This document shows positions 4,449-20,600 of a DNA stretch of 64,000 bases, piece after piece. The translations under genes were made by a program, and so were the position numbers. Under the pieces are notes generated by a model. The model was not told where the DNA came from. It did no database searches and saw nothing but the letters and a program-made list of their open reading frames with translations. The stretch comes from a virus. Within the stretch, counting starts at the first letter, position 1. Every line of letters begins with the position of its first letter. The DNA is taken from IMG/VR virus record IMGVR_UViG_3300020413_000006, positions 1-64,000 of that record; one strand, 5' to 3'.

Positions 4449-7400
4449 TTAGGTAGGATTGATGTTGAATCTAATTCTTACATAGTATGTAGTATTAGCA
4501 CTTAAGTTTACTGCACCAGGTAAGGTATAAGATAGTAAGTTTGTTGAGTTACCAAGAGATTGGTGAACGATAGTTGCAAAGGTATTTGCAGGAGAAAATT
4601 GCCAATCACTAGATGAATGTGTGTAACCAGTCTTCATCTGTATACTAGCAACATTTATTGTTGGGTTGAATGCTGGTGTAATAGTTTGTATATCTGGTTG
4701 ATCAACTAATGGAGTTGTAAAGTTTACTGCTGATGAGAATGCACTCTCAAGACCAGCGTTATCTCTAAATTTAACCTGTACAGAGTATGCGGTATCAAAG
4801 TCTAGAGTTCCAGATGGAACAGTGATAGATGTTTTATTACCAGTATCACCACTAGCAAATGTGTCTGCTGTGTTATACACAGTGACGTTATCACTAACTC
4901 TTCTTATTCTCCAGAAACTAGAGAAGTGAACTGATCCAGAATACTCTACAACATATGCTGATGTATTGATTACAGGTTGTCTAGAGAATGTTTTACTGGT
5001 ATCAGTATCAATAACAGGAGTGATGGAACTAGGTGCAGATACGAACTCAGACTCATTAACAGTGAGTGTTGCTGCATTCGATGTAACTGTTGTAGCATTT
5101 GGATTACTTAATATACAACGGAATTGTTCTGAGGGGTTTGTTGGATAAACTGTAGCGGGAGTTGTATACGTTGCTGTGTTAGCACCATTTATATTACTCC
5201 AAGTTGCTGCATTATCAACAGACTTCTGCCACTGATATGTAATAACATCACTTGTTATTGATGCAACTATGTTAAGTGTTGCAGTCTGTCCTTCAATAAC
5301 ACCAACGTTTTGTGGTTGTGTGCCGATTGATATGACACGTAAGATTGTTAGTAAAGCAAATGTAGATGTGATAGGAGCAGATGAACCTACAAGAGATACA
5401 GTACATGTATAACGGTCATTGTTGTCTGCAGCAAACGTGGTTGTTGGAGTTGTATACGATGCACTCGTTGCTCCTGCTACCTGAGTATAATTGTTTCCAC
5501 CATCATCAGATCTATTCCACTGGTATGTTGGAGTTCCACTACTAGATGTGCTTGATACTGAGAATGTTCCAGTACCACCTTCGTTAACAGTTGTGTTAGA
5601 TGGTTGTGCAGTAATAGAAAATGTTCTTACAACTGTAAGATCAACATCATTAGTATATGCCGAAGCAGATGCTCCAACAGCATCTATCTTACAACGATAT
5701 GAGTCTTGATGATCTGCAGCGTATGTAGTTGCAGCAGTTGTATATGATGCAGAAGTTGCTCCCGCAACTGTATTCCAAGTTGAATCAGCTGTATTCAAAG
5801 CATTACCTTGACCTGTATGGAAATGACACCAGTAATAAATGGTGCCAGTCGCACTGCTAGGTATATTCCATATTACTTGACGAGTAGTAGCAGCGACAAA
5901 TCCACTAACATAATTTGCCATAGTTACAGTAACGCCATCCAACTTATAGGTAACACCTGTATTGTAATGAGTTCCACCAGCTAACTCTCCATCTAAAGTT
6001 GTACTGAGCATCAATGGATGATGTTGATTATTGTAATTAGCATTAGAAGAATCTGACTGATCAAAAGTAAAAGTGTGTCCCCTATATGCACTAAGGGCAG
6101 GTTTTTCTAAACCAAATAAGTAAAATACACCTGTTGCTTGACCACCTACTGTGTCAACTCCAACTGTAACGTTAATAACTTTATTACCATGATTAGATTG
6201 CTCCCACTGATATGTGACACTAGGACTATGTGATGACTGTCCAGCAGCACCACCTCCACCACCACTAGGAGTATCAAATTGTTCTGTCTCGAATGATGAT
6301 GAAGCTGCGTTACCACCAACAGGTGCCATGGTAACATCACCGAGTGTACTGAATGTTGCAGTGGAACCTTCATTTACTGAAGCACTGTTTGGTTGAGTTG
6401 ATACAACCACAGTTACAGTTTCTACTTGTAATGTAGCAACGTTAGACGGTATAGTTGTTGCACCATTTGCTGATAATAAACAACGGTATTGATAAGAATC
6501 GTATGCTGTAGTTAATGTAGGAGTTGTATAAGTTACTGTTGTACCACCACTTCCCTCAGATACATTAGACCATGAAGCACCAGAGGTTATTGATACTTGC
6601 CACTGGTATGTAATGTCTCCTGCATCATTATCAGATGTAGTTGCAGCAACACCAAATGATGATGTACCACCAACTGCACCAGTTATATTAACTGGTTGAG
6701 ATGTTACATTGATTGTTCTTTGTACTAAGTTTCTTGCAGGATTAGTGAATACTTCAGCAGCACCAGCAACGTTTAATTTACATCTATAGTAGTCACCGTA
6801 GTCATTGTCGTATGATGTACTACCTGTAGTATATGTTGTACTATTAGCACCACCTATATCAGCGTATGTTGTGCCATCTCCATTCTGTGATATCTGCCAT
6901 TGATATATAACAGTTGCAGCATCTTTTGTACTAGCAGCAGTGGTAAATGATCCAGCTGCGGGTGCCATTGGTTGAGAATTACTTGGTTGTGTGTCTACAG
7001 TAATTACACGAGTTACAGTAAGTGTTGCAGCAGTAGTTGTGCCTGGTGCAATAGATGTTGATGAAGACATCTTACATCTGTACTGATAAGTGTTGAGTGA
7101 GTATTGATCATCAACACTTAATGTTGACAATGTTGCACCACTATAGAAACCACCGTTAGTTACGTTAGACCAACCAGCACCACCATTACTTGAGTATTCC
7201 CACTGGTATAAGATAGTAGAACCATCAGAACTTGTAGCAGCAACAGGACCAAAGGTAGCATTGACATTTGCCCCAGCTTCTATTGTTGTAGATACAGGGT
7301 TTCCTGTAACAGTTATTAGAACACCAGTTCCTGTTGTAGTGAATGAGTATGCACGAGCATTTTGAGTTACGTTTTCAGTAACAGTAAAGTTGAAAGTAGT

Positions 7401-10337
7401 ATCAAGATAATCTGATGTTACAGTTCCAGATAACTCACCTGTTGAAGTATTGAATGTCAATCCAGATGCACCTAGACCATCTCCACTAAGTGTATACGCT
7501 TCAAATGTAGGTTCATTAGCAAAAGTTGTTCCAGCAAGTCCTAATTGCACACTAACAGTTGCACCGTTTGCATATGGACTACCATTTAATGCACCACTGG
7601 ATGTTGTCCATGTTACACTGCTATCAACATATGGGAAGAATGCACCTATTTTTTTAGTGAGTGTAGAACCAGTTCCTGAATAATCAAAATCAACACCTGA
7701 ATCTAATGGGTAGTATGCTACGTTGGTATATGAACCTGTACCAGCTGCTTCTTGTGCATCTGTCTGCGAACGTAATGTAGTTGATGTATAGACTACGCCA
7801 TCAATACTTTCGTGGGTTTTTGCTTCTGGATCTATTAGTGCTAAGTAATTATTTGAACCACCACCTGTTGTACCAGCAGTAGCATTTGAACTATTCTGTA
7901 CAGTAATACTATTATTAACTCCACTTTCTGCTTGTATAGTTAACCATCCAGATTGTGCTAAACCTGAGACATCTATACCACCAACAGTAATACCACCTGA
8001 TCCACCAGATGCTGATTGAACTGTAACAGCTCCATACATTGAGTTATGGGCAGAGCATTGATAATAGTAAGTTCCTGTAGCGTTTGGTGTCCATGATAGA
8101 ACAGAGTTTCCAGTGGCACCTTGTCCTGTTGCAGCTGGTGTGTTTACTTGATTACCAGTTCCAGTTCCTTGAACTGTTTTAAAGTATGTTGGGTGACTAC
8201 CCGCTACGTTTGATAAGTTAAAGTTTAATGTATCTCCAACACTTATAGTTACTCCTGCATTGTTACCACTAACATTACCATTTCTATCAGTTCCATTTAA
8301 TGTGTAATATGAAGCACTAGGTGCGGTTACTGTTATATTGTAAGTGTTTGATACTGAACCACCAGATCCCGCTGTAGATCCAGTTGTTCTCAACTGACAT
8401 TTCTTACCAACATTTCCTAGGAAATGAGAAGAGTCAGCAGGGTTGAACTTTATCTCTAAGAAATTATTTCCTGCTAAAGTTACATATGGATTGTCTATTA
8501 ATTTCTTATCTTCTATACTATTAGTTGGATAGTATGTGGATGAACCTTTTCTTATATCTCCAGTAGCATCAGTGGTTCTACAGAAAGTTTTAAATGTTCC
8601 TGTTAAATTATTTGTAGTGAGTGTGTATCCATTTGCACCACACCACGCCAGAGCAATACCAGCAACTAAAGGTGCTGAGAATGATGTACCACTTATAACT
8701 GTATAGTTACTTGCACTTGTCTGAGGTGTGTTTGCTAACCAATCATATTGTGGAACTAAGATTCTAGAACCTGGTGCTACTAATGTTACGCCAGCACCAT
8801 AGTTTGAGAAGTTTGCCCATCTATCATTATACTCAGTTGCACCAACAGATACTTTATTTTGATTTGCATCTACATTGTTTATACCACCATTGGTATTGTC
8901 AGCATATCCTGCAGTCCTTGAACCAGCAATACACTTTGCTTGTATAGGTCCTGCAAAGGCATCCGCACTATTTTTAAATCCATTACCAGCTGACCTTACA
9001 ATAATAATATTGTATGTGCTTGATATAGTTCCTTCAATGTCGTCTAATAACTCTTCATCAGTTCCACTGTCGGAACCAGCGTCATTTAATTCAACGTAAG
9101 GATAATTCTGTGTTGGTATAGTAGGACCAAAGGATGAGTTGATAACAGCTGGACGATTACTACCTTTATAATTTGCATTACCACTGGTGTTGTGATCTAT
9201 AACTGCCTGATAAGCACTAAGTATGTTCGTATAAGATGCTGATAATGTACTATCAAATGCCTTAAGTGCATATATCTTTGATCTCTTTGACACGCCAGCA
9301 GTTCTCCCAGCCGCCAAAATAGCACAGTGAGTACCATGTCCATTGTCATCTTCGTTATTAGATCCATAACCACCAGCATAATGTGATAACTGGAATACTC
9401 TATAGTTCTGTTGTTCTGTAGTACCGTTTAAGTCAGATACAAAGTTTGGGTCATATAGTTCAGAATGTAATGCTGCGTTGTTACCTGTAGGTCTACTTGC
9501 TCCTCTTACACCAGTATCAATGACGTATAGGTCAGCACCTTCACCTTGCTGACTGTAACTAAATTGTCTGTTTAAATATTGCCTATCTTGTTTTGTAATT
9601 CTATCTAAATGCCAGTAGTCAAATATGTTTATAGTACCATATTTGTTTGGAGATGCACCATAACGTCCCATTCCAGCAGTAGTTACATTGTAAAAATATA
9701 GTATAGATGGTGTTGCAGAACTTACTACTAATTCTACTGATGCACCAGCTTGTCCTGCAGTTCCTGATGTAGTTACACCTGTATTGAAAGATACTCCCCC
9801 AGTAGTATGTGTGCCATCTGGAGTTATAGAGAATAACATTGGGTGACCAGCGTTAGATGAATCACTCTGATCAAAAGTATATGTTGCTCCGTCTAAGAAA
9901 CCAGTTTGGTTTGCGTATGTTGTATATGAACCACCTTGTGTCTGTGAAAATACGAACAAATCGTTTCCACTCGTAGAGTCTACTTTGACATATATTGTAC
10001 CTGTTCCACTTCCTGTTAAGGATCTAGTATTACTAGTTGTATTGTTTTCTCCAGTAGAGTTTAGAGTGGTAGACCCACTAGTTACAGTTGTTAACTGAGA
10101 CTCTTGTATTGGATTACAAGAAATTCTATTCTCATCCCATGTTGCTTTCTTAACAACATTTAATGCTCTGAGTTGATCCAAGATAACGCTCTCATATCTC
10201 TCAGGACAATCAAACGATACTATGGAAAAAGTTTTAAAATATTCTACAAAGGTTAAGTAACCATATAATTTCAAGATTGCTGACGTTGCAGAATCTAGAC
10301 TATAGTTATCACTGACCCTTACTATTACCCTCTTCAT
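4449..10337 (-). CDS. 1962-aa multidomain protein: I9-like prodomain, subtilisin-family (S8) serine protease, cupredoxin-like modules, six Ig-like repeats, C-terminal FN3-like domains
   Basis: Catalytic motifs YVIDTGV (Asp ~9516), GHGTHCA (His ~9336), RSAGN (oxyanion Asn ~8982), SGTSFSAPLVAG (Ser ~8682); six repeats of the type xQP...TYQW...YRC; C-x2-H-x2-M/Q motifs; YSVQVKFRD / YYVRIRF at the C-terminus. Confidence 0.9.
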   Translation of the reverse strand: MKRVIVRVSDNYSLDSATSAILKLYGYLTFVEYFKTFSIVSFDCPERYESVILDQLRALNVVKKATWDENRISCNPIQESQLTTVTSGSTTLNSTGENNTTSNTRSLTGSGTGTIYVKVDSTSGNDLFVFSQTQGGSYTTYANQTGFLDGATYTFDQSDSSNAGHPMLFSITPDGTHTTGGVSFNTGVTTSGTAGQAGASVELVVSSATPSILYFYNVTTAGMGRYGASPNKYGTINIFDYWHLDRITKQDRQYLNRQFSYSQQGEGADLYVIDTGVRGASRPTGNNAALHSELYDPNFVSDLNGTTEQQNYRVFQLSHYAGGYGSNNEDDNGHGTHCAILAAGRTAGVSKRSKIYALKAFDSTLSASYTNILSAYQAVIDHNTSGNANYKGSNRPAVINSSFGPTIPTQNYPYVELNDAGSDSGTDEELLDDIEGTISSTYNIIIVRSAGNGFKNSADAFAGPIQAKCIAGSRTAGYADNTNGGINNVDANQNKVSVGATEYNDRWANFSNYGAGVTLVAPGSRILVPQYDWLANTPQTSASNYTVISGTSFSAPLVAGIALAWCGANGYTLTTNNLTGTFKTFCRTTDATGDIRKGSSTYYPTNSIEDKKLIDNPYVTLAGNNFLEIKFNPADSSHFLGNVGKKCQLRTTGSTAGSGGSVSNTYNITVTAPSASYYTLNGTDRNGNVSGNNAGVTISVGDTLNFNLSNVAGSHPTYFKTVQGTGTGNQVNTPAATGQGATGNSVLSWTPNATGTYYYQCSAHNSMYGAVTVQSASGGSGGITVGGIDVSGLAQSGWLTIQAESGVNNSITVQNSSNATAGTTGGGSNNYLALIDPEAKTHESIDGVVYTSTTLRSQTDAQEAAGTGSYTNVAYYPLDSGVDFDYSGTGSTLTKKIGAFFPYVDSSVTWTTSSGALNGSPYANGATVSVQLGLAGTTFANEPTFEAYTLSGDGLGASGLTFNTSTGELSGTVTSDYLDTTFNFTVTENVTQNARAYSFTTTGTGVLITVTGNPVSTTIEAGANVNATFGPVAATSSDGSTILYQWEYSSNGGAGWSNVTNGGFYSGATLSTLSVDDQYSLNTYQYRCKMSSSTSIAPGTTTAATLTVTRVITVDTQPSNSQPMAPAAGSFTTAASTKDAATVIYQWQISQNGDGTTYADIGGANSTTYTTGSTSYDNDYGDYYRCKLNVAGAAEVFTNPARNLVQRTINVTSQPVNITGAVGGTSSFGVAATTSDNDAGDITYQWQVSITSGASWSNVSEGSGGTTVTYTTPTLTTAYDSYQYRCLLSANGATTIPSNVATLQVETVTVVVSTQPNSASVNEGSTATFSTLGDVTMAPVGGNAASSSFETEQFDTPSGGGGGAAGQSSHSPSVTYQWEQSNHGNKVINVTVGVDTVGGQATGVFYLFGLEKPALSAYRGHTFTFDQSDSSNANYNNQHHPLMLSTTLDGELAGGTHYNTGVTYKLDGVTVTMANYVSGFVAATTRQVIWNIPSSATGTIYYWCHFHTGQGNALNTADSTWNTVAGATSASYTTAATTYAADHQDSYRCKIDAVGASASAYTNDVDLTVVRTFSITAQPSNTTVNEGGTGTFSVSSTSSSGTPTYQWNRSDDGGNNYTQVAGATSASYTTPTTTFAADNNDRYTCTVSLVGSSAPITSTFALLTILRVISIGTQPQNVGVIEGQTATLNIVASITSDVITYQWQKSVDNAATWSNINGANTATYTTPATVYPTNPSEQFRCILSNPNATTVTSNAATLTVNESEFVSAPSSITPVIDTDTSKTFSRQPVINTSAYVVEYSGSVHFSSFWRIRRVSDNVTVYNTADTFASGDTGNKTSITVPSGTLDFDTAYSVQVKFRDNAGLESAFSSAVNFTTPLVDQPDIQTITPAFNPTINVASIQMKTGYTHSSSDWQFSPANTFATIVHQSLGNSTNLLSYTLPGAVNLSANTTYYVRIRFNINPT

Positions 10338-10365: not shown

Positions 10366-10373
10366 TATTTATG
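10366..10373 (-). promoter_or_regulatory. T4-type late promoter variant (CATAAATA) upstream of the S8 protease gene
   Basis: NATAAATA ~29 nt upstream of ATG 10337; AAGGA Shine-Dalgarno-like sequence in between. Confidence 0.6.
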
Positions 10374-10888: not shown

Positions 10889-10896
10889 TATTTAGT
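10889..10896 (-). promoter_or_regulatory. Possible late promoter variant (ACTAAATA)
   Basis: TAAATA core overlapping the oxygenase stop codon, ~22 nt upstream of the next ATG. Confidence 0.4.
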
Positions 10897-11602
10897 GTAG
10901 AAATGCATTGAAGGTTAGGCGGTCTACATCCCATCCCTCTTGTCTAAAATATGGCGAGTGCCACATTCTACCTTCATAAACAAGGAGAGTATTGAATTCG
11001 TGTTTTTCAACATGGTACCTCTCCCAATGTTTAGTTTTGTATTTTGATGGATCAAAGTTAACATATGCATTTACTTTGTTAACTATCCGTTCTATCCGAT
11101 AATTTTTATCAGATGAAACAAACTCCTCATCATACTCAGCGTGTCTCCAAAATGCAGTACCGTTATCAGTATCTTCCATTTCTTCATCATAGTTTAATGC
11201 TAACACAGCAGCGTAGTGTGTGTCATCCGTATGAGGTGTAAGACTACACATTCTACATTTCTTTTCTACTTCGTAACTTTGAAATGTAAAATGAGAGAAC
11301 TCTGGATCCTTCATTACCTTCTTAGATGCTTCAAAATAATTGTTTAAGATAAATCTAAACTGAGGTAATAATTGATTTGAAACATGTCCCAATCTAGAAA
11401 CATAACCTGGCAAATTAGAAAACTCACCACCGACAGTAGATACATAATCTGCTGCCATAGCGTATGCCCTAACTTGCTCTGGGTTAACAAAGAAATTTTT
11501 TATCTTAATAACTCTGTTCTTTGCTTTACCTATATGAAGTTGTTCTACTTCCCAATCTTTTGGGTGTAGGGAATTTAATATCTTTGGATCAATTATTTTC
11601 AT
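10892..11602 (-). CDS. 2OG-Fe(II) oxygenase superfamily protein (DUF6445-like)
   Basis: IKNFFVNPEQVR N-terminus, HxD motif PHTD, GTAFW, FNTLLVYEGRMWHS (distal His) and DRLT (2OG-binding Arg). Confidence 0.85.
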   Translation of the reverse strand: MKIIDPKILNSLHPKDWEVEQLHIGKAKNRVIKIKNFFVNPEQVRAYAMAADYVSTVGGEFSNLPGYVSRLGHVSNQLLPQFRFILNNYFEASKKVMKDPEFSHFTFQSYEVEKKCRMCSLTPHTDDTHYAAVLALNYDEEMEDTDNGTAFWRHAEYDEEFVSSDKNYRIERIVNKVNAYVNFDPSKYKTKHWERYHVEKHEFNTLLVYEGRMWHSPYFRQEGWDVDRLTFNAFLH

Positions 11603-13383
11603 ACTGTTTCTAACTGAGATGCATTTCTGTCTTCACCAAAATAATCTTTAATCAATTTGTCTTTACGTAAAACAAGAACATGTAGTCCATTCCACCAGTG
11701 AGTAGGATTCTCTATGACTCCACTTAGTATCCTTCTTTCAAAAAATACTTCTAACTGGTTCTCTTGTATAAAAGTAACTGTACTCTCAACAACACCATCA
11801 AAGTTGGCATCATCTACTACGAGTATGAACTGATCATCTAAGAATGGAAGAACATGGTTCAAGTTGTTCATCTGTTCCATCATATCATGATTTGCATCAT
11901 AAAACAATATGTTAGGTTTAACACCATCAAAGTCTTCTTCTGTTAGTTCATCAATAGATGCTTTGACAAATGCTGCATTACCATTCTCATACTTTTCCCA
12001 ATAGTTTACTAGAGTATCATATGGGTTCCCAACCTCTGTCCACCTTATATGGTCTGTCAGGGGTCTTACATTAGACTCTGAGAAGTCATCTACTCCAATA
12101 CACTTAACATTATTATTCATAGTTGCAGCAAAGAATGTGCTTCCAACATGAGTTCCAAGTTCTAGATATACTGCATCCTCGTGAGAACATAGACTGTTAA
12201 GGAAATGTCTAACACGATTAGAAGTTAATCCCATCGGTTCAAATCCATCAGGATTGAAGTTAGAGTTCTCTTGCATACCGTCATCTATAGCATTCAATAC
12301 TCTCTGTACATACTCATCCATATCTACAGGTCTATCTTGTTTTTTAAGATGTGCATTAACAACATTTTCACAGTAGTTGCAATCCCAACAATCAAATCCA
12401 CAAGTCTTTATCTTCTCTCTCCATAAAGCAATAGGACTATCTTTTACAAGAAGGTCATCCATATACTTATTAAACTCTGGAAACATTGTTTCTATTTTTT
12501 CATTGCCCCAAGCAGAAATTATATCCATGGACTCTTTGAGTTTCATAGCATTTTCTCTACCGTGCATTTTAAATACATCAATACCAAGATCCAAAAATTC
12601 ATTCCAATCTGATTTCCAAGGAGGTAAATTAGCTGCTTTCAGTGCGTGAGAGTTATCTTCTATATCCCACTTAGCACAAGAGTTTGTACTGATAGGATCC
12701 ATAAAGTATTGTGGAGTATCTTTTGTTCTTGTGCTATTGAAATGATAGTGTTCGTCCATCATAGAACAACCACCCCAACAACCCTCGTTAGTTAAAATTG
12801 ATAACTCTACAGGTTTGCCAATAGATGCACAGTATTCTTTTGCTTTTTTTATTTTTAATAGAGCATTCTTATCTCTCATCAAATCTCTATCTAAATTGAT
12901 GTAATGGAATCCTGCTTCCGCAAGAGACACAACTTCATTTGCTCTACTTACATTTCTAAGTATTGTATTCTTAATCTTTAATTCTGGAAATTCTTTTTGT
13001 AAGATTCCTGTAGCAACCCAACTAGTATGTGGTATAGTTACTATCTTGACACCCGCTTCATATAGTTGCCTAAAATTTTTGACAAACAAATCCAGATGTT
13101 CTAAGTCTGGTCTTACGTAGATATTATTGAACGTTGCTGATAATGGTATACCAGTCTCTTGATGAATAGCATATGCATTATAAAACAATTGAACTGGGTC
13201 ACCTTGAAATACATCACCCATAGCATCCTGATTAAAAGGAGGCATCCTACACGTGAAGTATAAGTCAACAATATATTCTTTATGTCTTTTCAACCAAGGT
13301 ATGAATACATCCTCAGCATATCTCGAATCAATCTTTGGGTTTATTGGAAGACTGAAGACGGATTTTTTCTTTGGGGATGTCAT
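11599..13383 (-). CDS. Peptidase U32-family (Fe-S, TIM-barrel) domain fused to class I SAM-dependent methyltransferase (Methyltransf_24-like)
   Basis: U32-like: INLDRDL, ELSILTNEGCWGGC..DEH...SCAKW, LGIDVFKMHGRE (cf. LKIEGR), extra Cys cluster CGFDCWDCNYC. MTase: YLELGTHVGST, IGVDDF, LFYDANH, ILVVDD. Confidence 0.8.
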   Translation of the reverse strand: MTSPKKKSVFSLPINPKIDSRYAEDVFIPWLKRHKEYIVDLYFTCRMPPFNQDAMGDVFQGDPVQLFYNAYAIHQETGIPLSATFNNIYVRPDLEHLDLFVKNFRQLYEAGVKIVTIPHTSWVATGILQKEFPELKIKNTILRNVSRANEVVSLAEAGFHYINLDRDLMRDKNALLKIKKAKEYCASIGKPVELSILTNEGCWGGCSMMDEHYHFNSTRTKDTPQYFMDPISTNSCAKWDIEDNSHALKAANLPPWKSDWNEFLDLGIDVFKMHGRENAMKLKESMDIISAWGNEKIETMFPEFNKYMDDLLVKDSPIALWREKIKTCGFDCWDCNYCENVVNAHLKKQDRPVDMDEYVQRVLNAIDDGMQENSNFNPDGFEPMGLTSNRVRHFLNSLCSHEDAVYLELGTHVGSTFFAATMNNNVKCIGVDDFSESNVRPLTDHIRWTEVGNPYDTLVNYWEKYENGNAAFVKASIDELTEEDFDGVKPNILFYDANHDMMEQMNNLNHVLPFLDDQFILVVDDANFDGVVESTVTFIQENQLEVFFERRILSGVIENPTHWWNGLHVLVLRKDKLIKDYFGEDRNASQLETV

Positions 13384-14107
13384 GTTTCACTTCAGATAAT
13401 TGAGGATTAGTTTCCTCAGGTGTTGTAATTTCAGAACCATTTATTTGCGGAGGAGTAAATTTACCACCCTCCATGATGTTAGCAACAGATCCACCCATTG
13501 CTTGTCTCATCTTTTCTACTCCTGCTCCAATAAGAGCAGAGTGGTGTACAGCTCCAGATAAGACTTGGACTTGATCATCAGGAGGTAGATTCATAATAGA
13601 ATCCATGTTACCAGTGCCAACGTGTCCAAAAGAAATCATATCGCAAGCAGCTTGTTTTGCCATACGACTGATCCAGTATTTCTTATCTTCCTCCTCATTG
13701 GTATCTAGATAATACTCTACTCCTTTAGATTTGTCTACCATCTCTTCCAACTGACCTGTAAAGTTAGCAATCTCTCGTTTACATACTAAAACTTTTTGCT
13801 CCCAGATAGTTCTATCGTAGTGAGCTTTCTCAATTTCAACTTCAACCATTTCCTTATCTAAAGGATCAGTCGCCAGTTTTAATTGTCTATTGAGTTTTTT
13901 AATATCAATAGCGTTCTTGTCAAGACGATACTGTAACTCCACTCTAGTGTTGTCTCTAGACTGTAGTTCTAGCAATGCTTGCTGTACTTTTTTAAATGGT
14001 GTTATCTGTGTCCCAACTACAAAATTCTGGTTTTGATATTTAGTTTGTCCACCTTCTAATTTGTACGAATGTTCTATCCAACCCTTTTCAGAATCCGAAA
14101 GTTCCAT
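13328..14107 (-). CDS. Hypothetical 259-aa helical/coiled-coil protein
   Basis: Long ORF overlapping both neighbours; coiled-coil N-half and YWISRMAKQAACDMISFGHVGTGNMDSI segment. Confidence 0.85.
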   Translation of the reverse strand: MELSDSEKGWIEHSYKLEGGQTKYQNQNFVVGTQITPFKKVQQALLELQSRDNTRVELQYRLDKNAIDIKKLNRQLKLATDPLDKEMVEVEIEKAHYDRTIWEQKVLVCKREIANFTGQLEEMVDKSKGVEYYLDTNEEEDKKYWISRMAKQAACDMISFGHVGTGNMDSIMNLPPDDQVQVLSGAVHHSALIGAGVEKMRQAMGGSVANIMEGGKFTPPQINGSEITTPEETNPQLSEVKHDIPKEKIRLQSSNKPKD

Positions 14108-15035
14108 AAGCTAGTTCTCCATCAAGTCGTTTTTGATTTTCATCAATACGTCCTAACTTCTGACCCTGCTTAATCGGCATTCCAACATTCAAGTAATCTT
14201 CGTACAAGATGTTCATATCCCACATATTATCACAGTTCCTGATCTGGGAACGTATTGCATGATATTTGCCTAATAATGAGGCGTAATCTATAAGGTATTT
14301 ATCATGGTTTTTGAGGACTCTTTTTACAAGTTCTCCTTTCTGCATTCCTCTCGTCATGCATAAGATATCTATAAAGGGAGTCTTCGAGTTCTCATCTTCG
14401 GTAAACCGTCTAGCTTCTTCAAGTTGATATAACCAACTCTCTGATTCTACATCACAACAATTTTTAAAGTTCTTAAATCTTAAATCAAACTCGTGTTCAA
14501 TAACTAAGATTGCTTGCTTCTTCATGTAAGAAAGAGCGAGTTGTATATTTTTAGATTCAACTTTTTTCTTTTTCTTAACATGTACCATCTCACCTTTGTC
14601 ATTCATTTCCATGACATAATCTTTATAGTGAGATCTCACCTCTCCTTGGAATCGTGGTGCGTTTAAAAATTCTTTCTCATCTAATTCGATATATCTCTTG
14701 AAGCAAGATTTAACTGTCTCAAAGACAAGTTTGTTCATCTTGACAGTAGTTACATTATGAAAATTAAATACAACTGAATATGTTGTAGAGTGTGGTTTTA
14801 TATCTGCCATCCTCAATGTATCCTCGTGGATAAGCATATAGATATAACCTTCTTTAATTTTTTCTTTGTCCTTAATAAACTTCTTAGTCTCTAATTCTAG
14901 AGGATGCTGAGGTACATATTTTGGACGTAAGAATTCCTCATCTTGTATAAGATCAGCAGGGATTCTTTTTTTCCACGCAGTATCTTCCTTCTCCTTTAGG
15001 AAGTTTCTGTTGGTTACAAATCTATTATTCTCCAT
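14088..15035 (-). CDS. 315-aa protein with C-terminal tail-fibre-assembly-associated helical domain
   Basis: ESESWLYQLEEAR...TPFIDILCMTRG...ELVKRVL...YASLLGKYHAIRSQI resembles the E.xSW..Q..EA...TP.LD.LA..RG...EL..KV pattern I recall from proteins encoded beside phage tail-fibre genes. Confidence 0.7.
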   Translation of the reverse strand: MENNRFVTNRNFLKEKEDTAWKKRIPADLIQDEEFLRPKYVPQHPLELETKKFIKDKEKIKEGYIYMLIHEDTLRMADIKPHSTTYSVVFNFHNVTTVKMNKLVFETVKSCFKRYIELDEKEFLNAPRFQGEVRSHYKDYVMEMNDKGEMVHVKKKKKVESKNIQLALSYMKKQAILVIEHEFDLRFKNFKNCCDVESESWLYQLEEARRFTEDENSKTPFIDILCMTRGMQKGELVKRVLKNHDKYLIDYASLLGKYHAIRSQIRNCDNMWDMNILYEDYLNVGMPIKQGQKLGRIDENQKRLDGELAYGTFGF

Positions 15036-15186
15036 TTACCTGTTTCTTCAATGCATCAAATTCCTTTCTCAAGTCTTCATGCTCTTTCTTTAAGATCATG
15101 AATGCCTGATAACTTGCGAAATCTGGTTGATTAAAATACATCAACGCATCGCTTCCTGTTTTAATACTTACATTTCCTGTTGACAT
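15025..15186 (-). CDS. 53-aa protein with C-terminal coiled coil
   Basis: Start reassigned to ATG 15186 (TAATG overlap with upstream stop): MSTGNVSIKTGSD...LKKEHEDLRKEFDALKKQVNGE. Confidence 0.7.
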   Translation of the reverse strand: MSTGNVSIKTGSDALMYFNQPDFASYQAFMILKKEHEDLRKEFDALKKQVNGE

Positions 15187-16565
15187 TACTGATACCTCAA
15201 TCCTGTTACTGCAAATGCTCCAGTGAAACATGCACCAGAGGATTGTCCCTGATGACCTTTAGGTTCTGCTTTAAATCCTAAAACAACGTCTCCATCTGTA
15301 GCGTGGAATCTCTTCCAAGTTCTATTGTTCTGATAACCTCCACCACCTCCTGCGTAGTTACCCATACAGTAACCCCAGTCTTGACCCATACACATATTTT
15401 CTTCACCAGAAGATATATCTACTTGGTTGAATGCACTACCTATTGATGAAGTTGTGACATCGTTAAATTTGAGCCATGGTAGTGTAACATTATTACCGTT
15501 ACCATGATAGCAGAAACCCCACTTGGTTGACAAGTCTTTCTTCCAACCATCTCCACCCCATCCAGATAAACTGTAGGATGAAACAGACTCATTACTAAAC
15601 TGTACATATCTTGCGTTACCAGTATCACCAAATAGATGACATCTAGTTTCACCTTCTGATCCAGTAGCACCACCATTACCAAAACCGTTACCTAGTCTTG
15701 TAGACATTTCAGTAACAAAGTTTAGTCTCTGGATAGAACCAGGACCTCCACCAGCAGTGTAACCTCTTTGTGTTTGTTGACCTGAGGCACAGCCAGGATC
15801 GTCTGTACTGTCCCAACTGTCTATTGATGCACCAATACTGTCTGGAGTAGAGTTATATGCATCGCCATGTCCGTATGTTCCATTAGGACCAAAAGATCTA
15901 TTAGTTCCAGTGTGTAGGTTAATACTACTTACCGCTTGTCCAGAACCACCGTATGAGTTCTGTGTACCGTAAACATATCCGTTAAAGTCACCGAAGTTTC
16001 CATCAACATATGATGCTGCTCTGTCTAACTGGTCACCACGACAAATAGTTACGTCTGTTGCTTGATATATCTGATTAACTGTTCTCCATGGATTTGATCC
16101 TCTATAACCACCAACCAAATATCCATGTGTGAAAATACTTCTGTATAAGAATGAAGAACCAACTGTGATATTATATGTGCTTCCAGTATATGTGTACCAT
16201 TGTCCTTCTCCACTATAAGGATTATAGTTTCCAGAACTTACAGATGGGTTCTGTGCGTTAGCAGATCCAGTATCTGTGTTGTAAGGACCGAAGTTATTAG
16301 TACCATAACTTCCTTGAAATGCTGCTTGACTAGATTCTGATGCTGCTGCTGTTCCCCAGAAAGCATTTTTACCATCAGACATTAAAATACCACCCGCAGT
16401 CTTAGGACTTTGAGATGGTAGTGTTTCAAATAAAACACCGTTCTGTAATAAATCACCAGTAAAATTTATGTTACCAGTAACATCAATGTTCTTTGGTATA
16501 GCAACTGTACTACCACTAGAGGTAACAGTATTTACTTGTGTAGTAGCAGCATTTAACTGTGACAT
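15186..16565 (-). CDS. 459-aa tail-tip/adhesin-like protein with Kelch-like beta-propeller repeats
   Basis: Short fibre-type N-terminus (NIDVTGNINFTGDLLQNG, LPSQ...GGILMSDGKNAFW) then ~6 spaced blades: GYLVGG, GYVYG, GYTAGG, CHLFG, CYHGNG, GYCMGN. Confidence 0.65.
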   Translation of the reverse strand: MSQLNAATTQVNTVTSSGSTVAIPKNIDVTGNINFTGDLLQNGVLFETLPSQSPKTAGGILMSDGKNAFWGTAAASESSQAAFQGSYGTNNFGPYNTDTGSANAQNPSVSSGNYNPYSGEGQWYTYTGSTYNITVGSSFLYRSIFTHGYLVGGYRGSNPWRTVNQIYQATDVTICRGDQLDRAASYVDGNFGDFNGYVYGTQNSYGGSGQAVSSINLHTGTNRSFGPNGTYGHGDAYNSTPDSIGASIDSWDSTDDPGCASGQQTQRGYTAGGGPGSIQRLNFVTEMSTRLGNGFGNGGATGSEGETRCHLFGDTGNARYVQFSNESVSSYSLSGWGGDGWKKDLSTKWGFCYHGNGNNVTLPWLKFNDVTTSSIGSAFNQVDISSGEENMCMGQDWGYCMGNYAGGGGGYQNNRTWKRFHATDGDVVLGFKAEPKGHQGQSSGACFTGAFAVTGLRYQ

Positions 16566-16568
16566 AAT

Positions 16569-16919
16569 TTACTCGGTATATTTCTCTTTAATTGCCTTAA
16601 TTGTTTTATACCAATTACCATCTTTACCAGGCATTAGTCCTGCATCCATATCTTTCCACAACAAATTTAATTGTTGTTCTACACTCAGTTCTTCATAGTC
16701 TAATCTTCTTAGAAAATGGTGATCTGGTTCTGAATATATTTTTGGAATTACACTCCCGTTTGATGGTTCATAGGTAAAATCAGGAGGTTGCATTCCCTCA
16801 ATAGTTTCATCAGGAATATCTTTCCAGAAGTAATCTTCGTGTGTTTCAAAACACTCGTCTTCAGTCATAACAAACTGACAAACGTTATTATTGCTTTTGT
16901 TAATTAATGCGAAACTCAT
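16569..16919 (-). CDS. Putative tail-fibre assembly/chaperone protein (116 aa)
   Basis: C-terminal RRLDY...VEQQLNLLWKDMDAG...WYKTIKAIKEKY resembles the R..YPSI.DQLD.L.HD...W...I.AVK.KYP pattern of marine phage fibre-associated proteins. Confidence 0.7.
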   Translation of the reverse strand: MSFALINKSNNNVCQFVMTEDECFETHEDYFWKDIPDETIEGMQPPDFTYEPSNGSVIPKIYSEPDHHFLRRLDYEELSVEQQLNLLWKDMDAGLMPGKDGNWYKTIKAIKEKYTE

Positions 16920-16924
16920 AATCT

Positions 16925-17680
16925 TTATGTGTAATTGAATACGATAACGCAGCCTGCACCACCGTTTGAGTTATTGTATGCGAAACTGTTTTGTGAGTAG
17001 TAACCATAACCTCCACCAGATCCCCACTGACCATGAGTAATCTCTTCTTGGTCGTTTTGATAATGGTGTGAAGATCCTGCTTTATGCCAGAATGATGATC
17101 CACCGCCACCTTCTCGGTTAGTACCGTGACACATTTCACCACCACCGCCAGGTAAGTTGATATCACCACCAGAGGCATTTCCACCAGGTCCTCCCTGATA
17201 TGGGTTATCGGTTTGTCCACCCTGACCGCCAGTAGCAGTTATATAAGAACCAAAGGATGAAGTTCCTCCAGTTGATCCTCTACCACCGTTACGAGCATAT
17301 GCTCCTCCACCACCATAGGTGTAGTTTACAGTACTGACATTAGATACATCAATGTATCTGATAGCAGTGGCACCACCACCGCCTCCAGCACCACGATAAG
17401 CGTTGTCGTTAATTCTTGCTCCACCGCCACCACCAGTTGCATATACTAGAACGTGAGTACAACCAGATGGTTTACTCCACACTCCAGATCCACCAGAAGT
17501 TGACTTAGAGTTCCAAGTACCATTCTGTGAGGTGTATGTATTAATGCTAAGTAAAGCACCACTTACAGTGAATGCTTCGTATGAATTACCATCCCAAATT
17601 TTAAAAGTTCCTGAGGAAACGTCGATAACGTTTGATCCTGCAGTACTCTGTATTTGGTCTACTCTTAAAATTCCTGCCAT
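16925..17680 (-). CDS. Glycine-rich adhesin / receptor-binding protein (251 aa)
   Basis: MAGILRVDQI N-terminal docking motif, WSKPSGCTHVLVYATGGGGG, and many Gly-rich (polyglycine-II-type) segments ending GGAGCVIVFNY. Confidence 0.75.
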   Translation of the reverse strand: MAGILRVDQIQSTAGSNVIDVSSGTFKIWDGNSYEAFTVSGALLSINTYTSQNGTWNSKSTSGGSGVWSKPSGCTHVLVYATGGGGGARINDNAYRGAGGGGGATAIRYIDVSNVSTVNYTYGGGGAYARNGGRGSTGGTSSFGSYITATGGQGGQTDNPYQGGPGGNASGGDINLPGGGGEMCHGTNREGGGGSSFWHKAGSSHHYQNDQEEITHGQWGSGGGYGYYSQNSFAYNNSNGGAGCVIVFNYT

Positions 17681-17687
17681 GATTAGT

Positions 17688-20600
17688 TTAAACTATGCTC
17701 CAGTATCCACCACTGTTTATGGTAACAGTTACACCGCTATTTATAGTAATAGGACCTGAACTTAAACAGTTGTCTCCACTATTAACAGATGTGCTCTCTC
17801 CAATAGAGTTTCTATTACGCTTCATTACACCATATCTATCTATCCATTGCTTGTCTCCATCAGCACGAAGAACAACGGATCTTTGTCCGCTAGATAGACC
17901 CACAGATGATGTATTGATATTTAGACCGTTCGCTCCTCTAACTTCCATTCGGTAAGATGACTGTGTTTGGTCACCACCACCATAGATTGTCCAGTAACCA
18001 CCGTCACCATCAATAGAACCCATTCCAGTATTGTTATTAGATCTGAAGTAGAAGTTATCTCCAGTTCTAAGATATGTGTGTGAGTTGTTAGCAAAGTAGA
18101 ATCTTTCTTGTCCACCATCATCATTCAACCATGTGTTAACACTAGCACCTAAGTATGGAAGTGCTAATGCAGTATAACCATCAAGTAAGTCTGCGTTAAG
18201 ATTAGGACATACAGTTGTAGAACTAACAGAGATCGGTGCACTACCTTGTGCGACTGTAGATCTTATAGTATTTGTTGAACGAATGTCGCCCTTAACATCA
18301 AGTTTGTAAGATGGTGTACCACTACCAAAGTTACCCACACCTACATTACCACTTCTTGAGATTCTCATAGACTCGAAGAAGTCGCCAGAACCATCAGTTC
18401 CTTGTGTATAGAACGATAGACCTAGGTAATCACTATCTGTGTTTTCACAAACACCAGTAATCATTGCACGTCTACGACTTCCAGTTCTCCATACAAGAGA
18501 ACCTAAAGTATGACCCACAGTAAATGCTGTGTCAACTTGAATCAACATTGATTCTCCACCAGTTGCAGTCATAGATGCTGATCCATCACCGTCACCAGTG
18601 TTACCACCTTCGTCTACGTGGATACGTGCTGCAGGATTGGTTTCCCCAATACCTAAGCGACCACCACGGAAAGTGATATTGTTGTATGATAAGTAGGTTC
18701 CATTCCAACCAAAGTCATTACTATCATTACCAAATCTTATTGAACCTACGTTAGAGTTTCCTCTACCACTAATCTTAAGAACGTTTGTTGCTGCCTTACC
18801 AATATTAACACCATTAGATCCAGCAAGTTGTAATGAAGAAGCACCAGTATTATTGAAAGTACCTTGGTCAGCAGTTAAGTCATTAACTGTTAAGTGTCCA
18901 GAAGCATCTCTACGTGCAAGAGTATTTGCTGTTGCAGATGTTGACTGAGTATAACCATCAACATAGTGAGCGTCTAACTGTGATGATGCTCCATCGTTTC
19001 CTGCGTGCCACATGGTGTTACCATTGACAGTTAGGTCGTTTGCGTTAAATCTTAATGCACCATTACCATCACTTCCATTACCACCAGAGACGATCATTTG
19101 AACGTCATAGTTTGGTGCTTGACCTGATGATCTAAAGTCTATTGTTGGTGTAGTAGATACCGCTGCTTTACCAATCTGTAACTTAGCACCGTTTGCATTA
19201 TCACGTAATCCAATAATTGTGCTAGATCCACTAGAAATTTTATTAGATGATGATACAGTCCATTTTGTGCCAGGATTAGGTCCGAAGACATATATGTTTG
19301 GATTATTATTAGAACCAACAAATGCTATCGTTCCAGTTACAAGAGAGTATATTTCACCAGTTGTGTGTGTAAGTTCTTGAACACCGCCAGAACTATCAAC
19401 TACGATAGAACCAATGTTGTTTGTTGCCCCTATATCAGAGTAGATAGTATATGTTCCACCATTGTTGATGTTACCACCAACACCACTATTACAATGGAAA
19501 TTTGGAATGTATAGAGTATATTTTAGTCCTGTGTCATTAACATAGAAGTTCTCAAAGACCATCTTGTCTTGACCAAGAACCTCTGGTAAGAACATATCAC
19601 CAATAGGTGATGTAACTCCACCACGTGTGTCACCTATGTTATAACCTGTCTGATACCAAAGTCCTTGTGATCCATCTAATTTGTCAGCATCTAGACCTGT
19701 TCCAGCACCATCGTTACCAGATGACCATATCTTCTCCCAGTTAGAGTAGACTGCATTTATTCCACCATTACCTCTGATGTATAGATTGTTATTATCTGTG
19801 AATCCTAATTGAGTTGATGCAGTTCCAGTAGACTGTCTTCTGTAAGTTACAATACCGTGTGTAGTACCACCATCATTTAATGCTGTAGCAGAGTTGTTTC
19901 TTAATGCTGCAGCAACACCATTTGCTGCCTGAGCAGGAGATGGGTTTGATGTGAGTGATGCAGTCTCGTTAAATATTCTGTTTGCAGTATCAGCAGTACC
20001 AGATATAGAGATGTTGTATGTTACGTTTGCAAGTCTTGCAGGATCTAACGTACCAAAGATAATGTTGTTTGCAGTCTGATAGTAGATACCTTGGTTACCA
20101 TCTAGTCTGTCAGCGTTAAGTTCTGAACCAGGTCCTTGGTCAATTGAAACTTGACCATTATCATCAATAACAAATCCACCTTGATCTTGGTTAGCAACTG
20201 CTTGGTTAGCAACGTCCTTTCTAAATCTGAATACACCGTAGTTACCATATACACTAGCACTTGCAGTTAGTGCATTACCCTTTCTAATATCAATTTCAAT
20301 GTTACCAAAGGCACGATTGATTGATCCTTTAACAGCACTCAATACTGCAGAACTACCAGAACCAAGTTCACTTGGTATAGTTACAGAGAATGTTCCAGTA
20401 TAACCAGTACCAGAGTCAGTAACCTGTGCGGATGTAATTGCACCACCTGATACAACATATGTTGCACGAGCAACGTCTTGACTGGTAACAGAAACGTTAC
20501 CACCTTCCATTGGTAAGTTCTGATAAGTTCCATCTGTATATCCAGTACCAGCGTTAGTAATAGTAATACTGTCAATGTATGAACTATCTGTTACTGATCC

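Follow-up and report, generated by a model that had tools for sequence, protein, structure and literature searches.

A conserved gene module in the fibre region of T4-like cyanophages, with a U32-like/O-methyltransferase fusion and a probable propeller protein

The window analysed here comprises positions 1-64,000 (64 kb) of IMG/VR record IMGVR_UViG_3300020413_000006, a marine T4-like cyanophage. ORF calling on this window places six consecutive ORFs on the minus strand at 10892-16565. From 5' to 3', these are g459 (15186-16565; 459 amino acids [aa], phrog_1417), g68/g53 (15025-15231; 68 aa, or 53 aa from an internal ATG at 15186), g315 (14088-15035; 315 aa, phrog_1604), g259 (13328-14107; 259 aa, phrog_1409), g594 (11599-13383; 594 aa), and g236 (10892-11602; 236 aa). 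The successive overlaps are 46, 11, 20, 56, and 4 nt, in agreement with the run of overlapping genes described in the first-pass annotation; by the coordinates, the first of them (g459/g68) shrinks to 1 nt with the 53-aa start. The small g68/g53 gene, which overlaps both neighbours, is seen only in closer relatives (22 loci). On the 5' side lie genes for a 3459-aa fibre-like protein and for the 251-aa g251 (16925-17680, minus strand), a glycine-rich protein of fibre-tip type that matches Gly_rich_2 (PF21722, E 1.1e-10) and tail-fibre PHROGs. Between g251 and g459 is a small protein, g116 (16569-16919, minus strand; phrog_1787). In closer relatives, too, g251 is found upstream of g459, and it likely shares a transcription unit with the cassette. 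The 3' neighbour encodes a 1962-aa protein with S8 subtilase and Ig domains, followed by homologues of genes annotated in S-CAM4 as head-tail adaptor, head closure, and tail sheath stabilizer. These flanking matches bear out the earlier placement of the cassette between fibre and neck genes.

The core ATAAATA, which we take to be a late promoter after those of T4-type phages, has 11 matches in the window, all 11 on the coding strand and most of them just 5' of gene starts. One late-promoter-like copy, CTATAAATAG (17738-17744, minus strand), stands 58 nt before the ATG of g251 and likely marks, by this analogy, where transcription of the unit containing the cassette begins. The next copy after it that precedes a gene is at 10366-10372, before the 1962-aa gene. 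The first-pass annotation had noticed no such motif between the six genes. This is not strictly true, since an internal copy, GATAAATA (14296-14302, minus strand), lies within g315, 190 nt before g259. Parts of the cassette are represented in contigs from four seawater RNA libraries (two studies), and these contigs span all of its gene junctions, a weak sign that the cassette is transcribed.

Four of the genes, g459, g315, g259, and g594, form a conserved core. Among 50,697 phage records searched, g594, g459, and g259 each match 123 cyanophage records (77 Synechococcus, 38 "Cyanophage," and 8 Prochlorococcus), and g259 matches 126 in all, including 3 Ralstonia phages. Wherever a viral locus has over 1 kb of sequence upstream (73/73), g259 adjoins the U32-like gene, lying at most 2.5 kb upstream of g594, and all 49 viral loci with over 4 kb of flank have g459 upstream of g594; the 73 loci, like the 71 considered below, are related to one another, so that such counts are not independent events. 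The linkage of g594 is kept down to 41-47% identity, and an HMM match to g315 is present in 51 of 59 loci. The Ralstonia jumbo phage RP12 carries a cut-down module in which ORF142, a propeller-only homologue of g459 (hhalign 78.8%, E 1.6e-5), ORF140, a homologue of g259, and ORF139, a U32-like gene without the methyltransferase, stand side by side. A large set of T4-like cyanophages has the module, as do some other phages, and fibre genes flank it in the window as well as in distant phage loci. Literature searches returned no paper on the cassette. Three cyanophages whose virion proteomes have been published are cited in Sullivan 2010 (PMC3037559), and as far as the part of that paper available to us shows, they lack the module (T4-GC 351-354).

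These distributions bear directly on whether the enzymes are coupled to their neighbours at all. They could be passenger auxiliary genes in a hypervariable fibre region, with g459, g315, and g259 as ordinary fibre parts; in cyanomyoviruses, according to the same portion of that source (Sullivan 2010, PMC3037559), accessory genes concentrate in fibre-region hot spots. Cyanomyovirus genomes have many 2OG oxygenases, a DUF6445 gene in Sf-FS3 lies directly 3' of a gene annotated with a peptidase S74 domain, and g594 is about 6 kb from g259 in S-ShM2 and S-RIM14. However, the identical record counts of the three core genes, their co-occurrence without exception in the loci above, the same trio in the unrelated RP12, and the overlaps between the genes make this improbable. 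The expected co-occurrence of the enzyme with the propeller and helical partner genes is upheld for g594; it does not extend to the whole redox set, as the DUF6445 gene is accessory to the cassette (9 records versus 123 for the core genes).

The first-pass annotation read g594 as a fusion of a U32 protein and a methyltransferase, and profile and fold evidence agree, whereas the Pfam U32 model (PF01136) has no match to g594 even at E ≤10 and matches 0 of 24 sampled family members. In an AlphaFold2 model (pLDDT 90.2) searched all against 48,161 solved-structure chains, the N-terminal domain (residues 1-370; 12274-13383, minus strand) has as its best fold match the U32 protein Mk0906 (5d88; Z 16.7, root mean square deviation 3.3, 227/247 residues). 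An hhalign comparison of the 58-sequence g594 family with a bona fide PF01136 phage protein, EcS1 ORF039, gives 95.5% (E 1.4e-8, 329 columns), while the same family against Escherichia coli UbiU alone gives no match. The domain thus appears to be a very divergent U32-like TIM barrel, belonging to a small family with 276 representatives at E ≤0.001 among 1.84 billion. It has seven invariant cysteines (C202, C206, C236, and C328-x3-C332-x2-C335-x2-C338), which suggest that it binds an Fe-S cluster. The U32 family includes the O2-independent Fe-S hydroxylases UbiU/UbiV, TrhP (YegQ), and RlhA (YdcP), and by analogy we infer that this domain is a hydroxylase. It has the TIM barrel of Mk0906 and conserved cysteines of its own, but differs from the family in the extra invariant C-x3-C-x2-C-x2-C block, the methyltransferase fusion, and the phage partner genes. 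The historical name of the fold family, as in the title of 5d88, is peptidase U32, and the RP12 module has a collagen-repeat gene nearby, so cleavage of a fibre or host surface protein was also considered. We regard it as highly improbable: the characterised members of the family known to us are Fe-S hydroxylation proteins, and seven invariant cysteines together with a fused O-methyltransferase fit redox chemistry better.

The C-terminal domain of g594 (residues 371-594; 11599-12273, minus strand) matches Pfam Methyltransf_24 above its cut-off and contains the conserved motifs E-x-G-x3-G, F-Y-D, and D-D-A-N, whose metal-ligand assignment we presume from known motifs. It is predicted, from sequence and model, to be a cation-dependent, catechol-type O-methyltransferase (class I, catechol/CCoA/TrmR type). 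Its fold matches are O-methyltransferases, including TrmR (5zw3) at Z 15.9, a match tied with many others (Z 16.2 to 14). With norbelladine 4'-OMT, MeT1, and Rv0187 it shares the Rossmann fold and the SAM/acidic motifs, but identity is only ~12-15%, and the g594 domain is fused to a U32-like barrel.

In Bacillus subtilis, yrrMNO encodes TrhP and TrmR, which convert tRNA U34 to ho5U and then mo5U. Like that pair, g594 combines a U32-type protein with a cation-dependent O-methyltransferase of the TrmR fold class, a likeness that suggests a logic of hydroxylation followed by O-methylation; unlike it, g594 is one fused chain in a late fibre operon with partner genes that the tRNA system lacks. The parallel invites a nucleic acid target, with g594 hydroxylating and methylating a pyrimidine C5, at the tRNA wobble position or in phage DNA. 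The gene for EcS1 ORF039 is surrounded, according to annotations, by thymidylate synthase, thymidylate kinase, and sugar isomerase genes, and both RP12 and locus L087 have dCTP deaminase genes close to the U32-like gene. Yet the TrmR match is shared with many O-methyltransferases, we found neither a tRNA link for g594 nor an RNA- or DNA-binding domain, and such a target would leave unexplained the obligatory linkage to the propeller and helical genes and the placement in a late fibre unit. We consider it quite unlikely.

The last gene of the cassette, g236, encodes a DUF6445 (PF20043) protein with an invariant H124-x-D126 ... H215. Its earlier assignment as a 2OG-Fe(II) oxygenase stands as far as this HxD...H signature, shared with the 2OG/Fe(II) oxygenases of PF13640 and PF13759, makes the protein 2OG/Fe(II)-oxygenase-like; it has no match to any named 2OG family in Pfam, and a profile search of solved structures returned nothing meaningful. 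A DUF6445 relative, Sf-FS3_27, gives a subthreshold match to 2OG-FeII_Oxy_3 (E 0.0027). In 57 of 71 related loci, the gene directly 3' of g594 is of 2OG type, drawn from three Pfam families (37 DUF6445, 17 Oxy_5, and 3 Oxy_3).

Other genes at this end of the module raise the possibility that g594, the 2OG enzyme, and Trp halogenases tailor a free aromatic compound (indole or phenol), with g459 as an enzyme or binding protein and a DUF401-like protein moving the compound across the membrane. Distant phage versions of the module add Trp halogenases, whose genes lie directly 3' of g594 in four loci (L053, L063, L065, and L083), and a gene resembling a DUF401 transporter, which comes after the enzyme in 8 of the 71 viral loci as well as in RP12; a Trp halogenase gene is also near a bacterial relative (L100). 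Among the nearest methyltransferase folds are catechol O-methyltransferases from plants and bacteria that act on small molecules, and a small aromatic ring is the substrate of the U32 members UbiU/UbiV. Against this, the cassette in the window has neither transporter nor halogenase, the module's position among fibre genes and after a late-promoter-like motif is constant, such a pathway leaves the two helical partner proteins without a role, and the g459 family carries fibre-type features, described below. Tailoring of a free compound is, in our judgment, a serious but less likely alternative.

The g459 protein consists of a variable N-terminal region and a conserved core of ~320 aa with six periodic motif pairs and an invariant G387-E388-E389, followed by a C-terminal tail that ends R-Y-Q. 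The motif pairs fit the earlier propeller label, and the core is a probable six-bladed propeller, but the internal-repeat signal by hhalign is weak (E 0.026). Its composition (G 16.3, S 10.9, T 9.2, N 8.3, Y 5.4, and C 1.5%) does not agree with the Cys-rich tip proposed earlier. One of 23 g459-family members has a Gly_rich_2 fibre-tip domain fused to the propeller core. Syn19_043 and PSSM4_032 share an N-terminal motif, VGTTA(Q/E)RP...(R/F)(Y/F)N...EGY, with the adjoining fibre-like proteins Syn19_042 and PSSM4_031. An aromatic residue is present at the C terminus of 70 of 73 g459-family ORFs, kept 1-4 positions from the end; by our own estimate from g459 composition, roughly half of tails would have one within the last six positions by chance. 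This residue is a candidate modification site.

The remaining core proteins resemble helical accessory partners. In g315 (model pLDDT 78.1), a disordered N terminus precedes an alpha/beta domain (~62-158) and a helical bundle (160-295). No known fold or family was found for it, and with a best solved-structure match of Z 6.0 its description as fibre-chaperone-like is not supported. The helical/coiled-coil protein g259 has a conserved core of W145, R148, K151-Q152, G161, and G166-N167.

Taken together, we favour, at a probability of roughly 40%, a late-expressed module in which g594 hydroxylates and then O-methylates a target, with g459 as the prime candidate. The U32-like domain would hydroxylate an sp2 (aromatic) carbon, the fused methyltransferase would O-methylate the new hydroxyl, and a 2OG-type oxygenase, here DUF6445, would be a frequent extra tailoring step. 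Hydroxylation followed by methylation is the likely chemistry, and g594 probably adds a methoxy group. The target would be a macromolecule made by the module itself, first of all g459, a presumed fibre-associated protein of the virion, with g315 and g259 as accessory proteins. A point against a protein target is that, to our knowledge, U32 enzymes act on RNA bases and on a quinone ring, and we know of no protein among their substrates.

Bacterial stand-alone relatives of the U32-like domain are found in a peptide- or aromatic-tailoring setting. The first-pass annotation had asked whether radical-SAM enzymes are swapped in at related loci, and radical-SAM/SPASM genes do adjoin these relatives (L088, L089, and L093), as do C39-ABC exporters with HlyD (L090, L091, and L094) and, in L093, a DUF6445 gene. 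With its radical-SAM/SPASM enzymes, C39-ABC exporters, and a halogenase, this setting resembles maturation clusters for RiPPs and protein-derived cofactors, such as the qhp genes for quinohemoprotein amine dehydrogenase, which combine a radical-SAM/SPASM enzyme with an exporter and a Trp hydroxylase. The phage module resembles such clusters in pairing an enzyme with a specific protein partner, a likeness in gene content only, with no precursor peptide or recognition element found; at one bacterial locus inspected, no precursor-like small ORF was evident. In L088, L089, L093, and L095 the bacterial relatives come as two paralogues in tandem, and one pair is fused (P0014), an arrangement resembling the UbiU-UbiV and TrhP1-TrhP2 pairs.

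In the genome of a T4-like cyanomyovirus, the window corresponds to the late structural region. Every large open reading frame (ORF) lies on the minus strand, and the closest named relatives of the encoded proteins come from Synechococcus and Prochlorococcus myoviruses such as S-CAM4, Syn19, and P-HM2. We recovered the six consecutive ORFs that a first-pass annotation had described as a cassette, named here by protein length: g459 (15186-16565), a small ORF (g68), g315 (14088-15035), g259 (13328-14107), g594 (11599-13383), and g236 (10892-11602). As that annotation had also reported, all six genes overlap, by 46, 11, 20, 56, and 4 nt in successive pairs, the first overlap shrinking from 46 to 1 nt when an internal ATG is taken as the start of the small ORF (53 aa). 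Upstream, the cassette is preceded by genes for a fibre-like protein of 3459 aa, a Gly_rich_2 protein of 251 aa that matches tail-fibre PHROGs, and a protein of 116 aa. Downstream, two small ORFs precede a gene for a 1962-aa protein (4449-10337, minus strand) with a Peptidase_S8 domain (residues 272-573, E 1.3e-25) and Ig-like domains, beyond which lie homologues of the proteins annotated in S-CAM4 as head-tail adaptor, head closure, and tail sheath stabilizer. The subtilase in this giant fibre-like protein may serve in self-processing or in degrading the host surface, and residues 692-774 show a weak, sub-threshold match of the plastocyanin/azurin copper-binding type.

The motif ATAAATA, which we take to be the core of the T4-type late promoter, occurs 11 times in the window (866, 10366, 14296, 17738, 28639, 38333, 38352, 46780, 61844, 62508, and 63108), 11/11 on the coding (minus) strand and mostly just upstream of ORF starts. 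Shuffled sequence carries about 23 copies, counting both strands together, so ATAAATA is under-represented as a whole and its strand bias is complete. The copy 58 nt ahead of the 251-aa gene is followed by one ahead of the 1962-aa gene, positions by which the cassette is probably part of a single late unit of ten genes. The earlier remark that no late-promoter motif separates the cassette genes needs one amendment, as a copy sits inside the g315 gene. Four seawater RNA libraries from two studies contain contigs with 92-99% identity to the window that cover each of the six genes in part and span the junctions g236/g594 (X1 record 4), g594/g259 (X4 record 27), g259/g315 (X1 record 5 and X2 record 13), and g315/g68/g459 (X1 record 5 and X4 record 30). 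These contigs, from libraries that can contain DNA and in which a two-gene contig is no proof of a single transcript, lend weak support to transcription of the cassette, timing aside.

The protein g594 is a divergent, predicted U32-like enzyme whose architecture and context are new. The first-pass annotation had called it a U32-methyltransferase fusion, and both halves find support, the barrel (residues 1-370) by profile and fold comparison and the methyltransferase (residues 371-594) by Pfam and fold, although the Pfam U32 model itself is silent: PF01136 did not match g594 at E up to 10, the six-frame translation of the whole 75-kb record, or any of 24 sampled members of the N-domain family (0/24). 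An exhaustive phmmer search with residues 1-370 returned only 276 representatives among 1.84 billion proteins, many of them stand-alone proteins of 330-390 aa. By tblastn, g594 matches a “peptidase” of E. coli phage EcS1 (ORF039), which is a bona fide PF01136 member (E 6.1e-11) and to which a 58-sequence family alignment can be aligned with 95.5% probability (hhalign, E 1.4e-8, 329 columns); against E. coli UbiU alone, hhalign gave nothing (probability 0.7%). The AlphaFold2 model of g594 (pLDDT 90.2) was compared with all 48,161 representative solved chains, without a Foldseek prefilter, and the best match of the N-domain was the U32 protein Mk0906 (5d88_A; Z 16.7, rmsd 3.3 A, 227/247 residues, model residues 5-282). 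Taken together, the EcS1 tblastn match, the hhalign result, and the fold match place this putative barrel in the U32 superfamily. Proteolysis as the activity of the module fits less well and is very improbable. Seven Cys residues are invariant in the 58 sequences: C202, C206, C236, and C328-x3-C332-x2-C335-x2-C338. In UbiU and UbiV, four conserved Cys residues hold a 4Fe-4S cluster. Phmmer and profile searches of solved-structure sequences gave nothing meaningful for g594 or its family, and Foldseek matches of the whole two-domain model were mostly unrelated barrel-plus-Rossmann proteins such as pyruvate kinase and PRMT5, the N-domain being resolved by the all-chain comparison. The U32 gene of EcS1 (locus L004, 1892-7910) is found among genes annotated as arabinose-5-phosphate isomerase, phosphoheptose isomerase, putative thymidylate synthase, and thymidylate kinase, and its region may, from these annotations, be a DNA-hypermodification cluster.

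The only Pfam match in g594 is Methyltransf_24 (PF13578; residues 407-525, E 5.8e-6, above the cut-off). The predicted fold of the C-domain matches 6g7d, 8c9v, and 5zw3 at Z 16.2-15.9, all of which are cation-dependent O-methyltransferases (MeT1, a Desulfuromonas OMT, and the tRNA ho5U methyltransferase TrmR), and its Foldseek matches also include catechol, norbelladine, and CCoA-type OMTs. The domain keeps E-x-G-x3-G, the SAM-binding glycine motif, while F-Y-D (493-495) and D-D-A-N (524-527), presumably the COMT-type Asp/Asp/Asn metal ligands, are kept in at least 80% of 24 full-length members. This two-domain architecture suggests a sequential chemistry in which the U32-like domain would hydroxylate a substrate and the fused domain would then O-methylate it.

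Iterated HMMs were run on all ORFs of 80 IMG/VR loci found by g594. The helical protein g259 is encoded within 2.5 kb upstream of g594 in 73/73 loci whose flank exceeds 1 kb, g459 is present in all 49 loci with a flank above 4 kb (49/49), and g315 in 51/59 loci with one above 2.2 kb, so the co-occurrence of propeller-like gene, helical partner, and enzyme proposed in the first-pass annotation is borne out. Of the eight loci missing g315, the three that were viewed (L053, L056, and L083) have an unassigned ORF of 141-188 aa in its slot. The linkage persists down to 41-47% g594 identity, with the order of the middle genes swapped in three loci. Among 50,697 phage records, g594, g459, and g259 each match 77 “Synechococcus”, 38 “Cyanophage”, and 8 “Prochlorococcus” records, compared as totals; g315 matches 116 cyanophage records at E up to 0.001, as well as 10 Helicobacter prophage records via a partial helical region. 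Only 9 of these records carry g236, which is thus an accessory. Megablast of the cassette against the same 50,697 records gave no match, relatives being found at the protein level only. That the genes are merely co-located is a poor fit to this linkage and improbable. In Sullivan 2010 (PMC3037559), the four core genes appear as T4-GC 351-354, annotated as hypothetical or as “similar to sericin 1 precursor”. As far as can be read from its table, S-SM1, S-PM2, and Syn9 lack these clusters; these are the three phages whose virion proteomes that paper discusses, and those proteomes are therefore silent on the core genes.

The gene directly after g594 varies. Across 71 viral loci with enough flank, this slot is occupied by DUF6445 (37 loci), 2OG-FeII_Oxy_5 (17), a DUF401-like gene (8), a tryptophan halogenase (4; in both loci checked, a 2OG oxygenase comes next), 2OG-FeII_Oxy_3 (3), a glycine-rich fibre-like gene (1), and an unknown gene (1); in cultured Syn19-type phages it holds denV. 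The recurrence of three 2OG-type families in one slot suggests that they are functionally tied to g594, although the loci are mutually related and cyanophages are generally rich in 2OG-type oxygenase genes. Side by side in the Ralstonia jumbo phage RP12 are genes for ORF142, a propeller-core homologue (hhalign 78.8%, E 1.6e-5), ORF140, a g259 homologue, ORF139, a U32-like domain without the methyltransferase (39% identity), and ORF138 (L003, 8016-9056), a DUF401 transporter-like protein. From this gene set, the conserved partnership would be that of propeller-like, helical, and U32-like proteins, with the methyltransferase an addition. The g315 family gave nothing against RP12 ORF141 by hhalign, and a Foldseek search with g315 lists a 158-aa RP12 protein at E 0.011. 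In distant viral loci, too, tail-fibre genes flank the module. DUF401 (citrate-transporter-like) membrane protein genes adjoin the U32-like gene in unrelated phages (L003 8016-9056, L052 11616-12530, L053 16085-17122, and L056 11595-12560), and in two large uncultured myovirus contigs of 145 kb and 245 kb (L053 11673-14818 and L083 11638-13185) one or two tryptophan-halogenase genes lie directly after the U32-like/O-methyltransferase gene, within the tail-fibre region. The tryptophan halogenases and the DUF401 transporter-like gene favor the main rival reading, in which the module is a small-molecule pathway. This we consider somewhat unlikely; linkage, fold, and context support a role of g594 with, or on, the product of the adjoining propeller-like gene.

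Stand-alone U32-like genes were also found at 19 loci in bacterial MAGs and genomes, one of which (L086) is actually a phage-like contig with the whole module. Tandem paralogue pairs are seen in Campylobacterota, the paralogue-pair loci (Campylobacterota and Syntrophaceae MAGs) being L088 (5982-10150), L089 (8-3013), L093 (1722-5679), and L095 (16-2017). A further relative, P0014, is a fused U32-like pair whose N-terminal half looks like a second U32-like paralogue; hhalign of the g259 family against this half gave nothing. UbiU/UbiV and TrhP1/TrhP2 are protein pairs in the U32 family, and the paired bacterial paralogues, tandem or fused, resemble them in this respect. Radical-SAM enzymes, raised in the first-pass annotation as possible substitutes, do turn up here, with radical-SAM/SPASM genes neighboring the U32-like genes in L088 (two), L089, and L093, and with a DUF6445 gene near the pair in L093. 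Other neighbors are C39-peptidase ABC exporters with HlyD (L090, L091, and L094, two of them with a TolC-like protein), a tryptophan halogenase (L100), and an ATP-grasp enzyme (L097, with a homologue of the same family in L098 by blastp). Judged by these neighbors, the bacterial setting is one of predicted peptide or aromatic-metabolite tailoring, not of tRNA/rRNA modification. For the phage module, nucleic-acid modification also fits less well and is quite unlikely. The gene sets of L088, L089, and L093 look like a putative, undescribed bacterial tailoring cluster, with no precursor-like ORF evident in L093, the bacterial locus inspected. In a Hydrogenimonas MAG (L092, 3100-9062), a U32-like gene directly follows, on the same strand, a type III-A CRISPR effector operon with Cas10/Csm1, Csm2, and RAMP proteins.

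Without a match in Pfam, g459 was characterized from its family alignment, which reveals a conserved core (about 320 aa) in which six motif pairs recur periodically, each an aromatic-x-x-G-G/N followed by N/F-x-x-T-E/D, starting at residues 147, 196, 267, 309, 351, and 398. The core thus described fits a six-bladed propeller, as the first-pass annotation had proposed, though the internal repeat is weak when one half is aligned with the other (hhalign, E 0.026). The described Gly-, Ser-, and Asn-rich composition (also rich in Thr) is found, but the protein is not Cys-rich (Cys 1.5%). The N-terminal part is variable: some distant members consist of the core alone (about 340 aa), and 1/23 family members carries an N-terminal Gly_rich_2 domain. 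A regex search found the fibre motif “GTTAQRP” in only 4 ORFs of the IMG/VR loci. In sequences from Sullivan 2010 (PMC3037559), the Syn19 and P-SSM4 orthologues share an N-terminal motif with adjoining fibre-like proteins. In the ESM Atlas, g459 matches only viral clusters auto-named “Sericin 1”, the best score for g259 (0.80) is at noise level, and neither protein has a model.

The C terminus of g459 offers a possible target. After a conserved SSG, an aromatic residue occurs within the last six positions in 70/73 g459-family ORFs, in tails of the types R-Y-Q (the clade of the window), Y-T-G-V/M, W-R/S-D, W-K-G, and Y-R-S, with Syn19 ending in P-N-F and RP12 ORF142 in Q-G-F; only the L048-type tail has no aromatic residue, and Trp-type tails are found in the halogenase-carrying clade. 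Because composition alone would put an aromatic residue in about half of the tails by chance, we treat this candidate modification site as a lead and not as a finding. Our main reading, to which we give a probability of roughly 40%, is that g594 would hydroxylate and then O-methylate a module protein or fibre; the predicted chemistry alone, irrespective of a protein target, is more probable than this full reading. A more specific version, which we consider unlikely, has an O2-independent U32-type Fe-S hydroxylase, the fused O-methyltransferase, and swappable 2OG oxygenases or halogenases tailoring the conserved C-terminal Tyr/Trp of a propeller-shaped fibre-tip protein, so that a hydroxy-, methoxy-, or halo-aromatic residue would yield a tailored receptor-binding tip and the first U32 protein substrate. 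We rank the small-molecule pathway above nucleic-acid modification, co-location, and proteolysis, which fit less well.

If a virion protein is indeed hydroxylated and methylated, phage structural proteins would be matured in a new way, U32-type enzymes would have their first protein substrate, and the modification might help to determine host recognition in the most abundant marine phototroph-phage systems. A small-molecule product would instead make the module a biosynthetic cluster carried by phages. In both cases, the U32 superfamily is extended well past Pfam detection and tied, in bacteria, to radical-SAM/SPASM and peptide-export genes. Literature searches found no paper on the cassette, and g594 relatives fall into 1,867 public-protein clusters (90% identity), of which the 120 listed are all unnamed or “hypothetical protein”.

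The remaining cassette proteins are described more briefly. Helical g259 has a conserved core and otherwise noise-level matches only, and phmmer and profile searches among solved-structure sequences gave no meaningful match for g459, g259, or g236. The protein g236, previously read as a 2OG-Fe(II) oxygenase, has a putative iron triad (H124, D126, and H215) that is invariant in 11 sequences including one bacterial, but it matches only DUF6445 in Pfam and no named 2OG family; its relative in Synechococcus phage Sf-FS3 (Sf-FS3_27) has a sub-threshold match to 2OG-FeII_Oxy_3 (PF13640, E 0.0027). In Sf-FS3 (L106, 2935-4263), a gene annotated with a peptidase S74 domain comes immediately before a DUF6445 gene and a second gene, for an Fe2OG dioxygenase, and oxygenase genes of this kind therefore occur beside another kind of neighbor too. 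The label “fibre-chaperone-like” for g315 found no support: the predicted structure (pLDDT 78.1) comprises an alpha/beta domain and a helical bundle, with no Pfam match, a best solved-structure Z of 6.0 (0 chains at Z of at least 8), PHROGs matches that are all functionally unannotated, and BFVD matches to uncharacterised viral proteins. A hypothetical protein of Helicobacter prophages (L105, 4701-5351) is about 30% identical to the helical C-terminal part of g315 (residues 168-271), and its gene lies about 2 kb from the portal gene.
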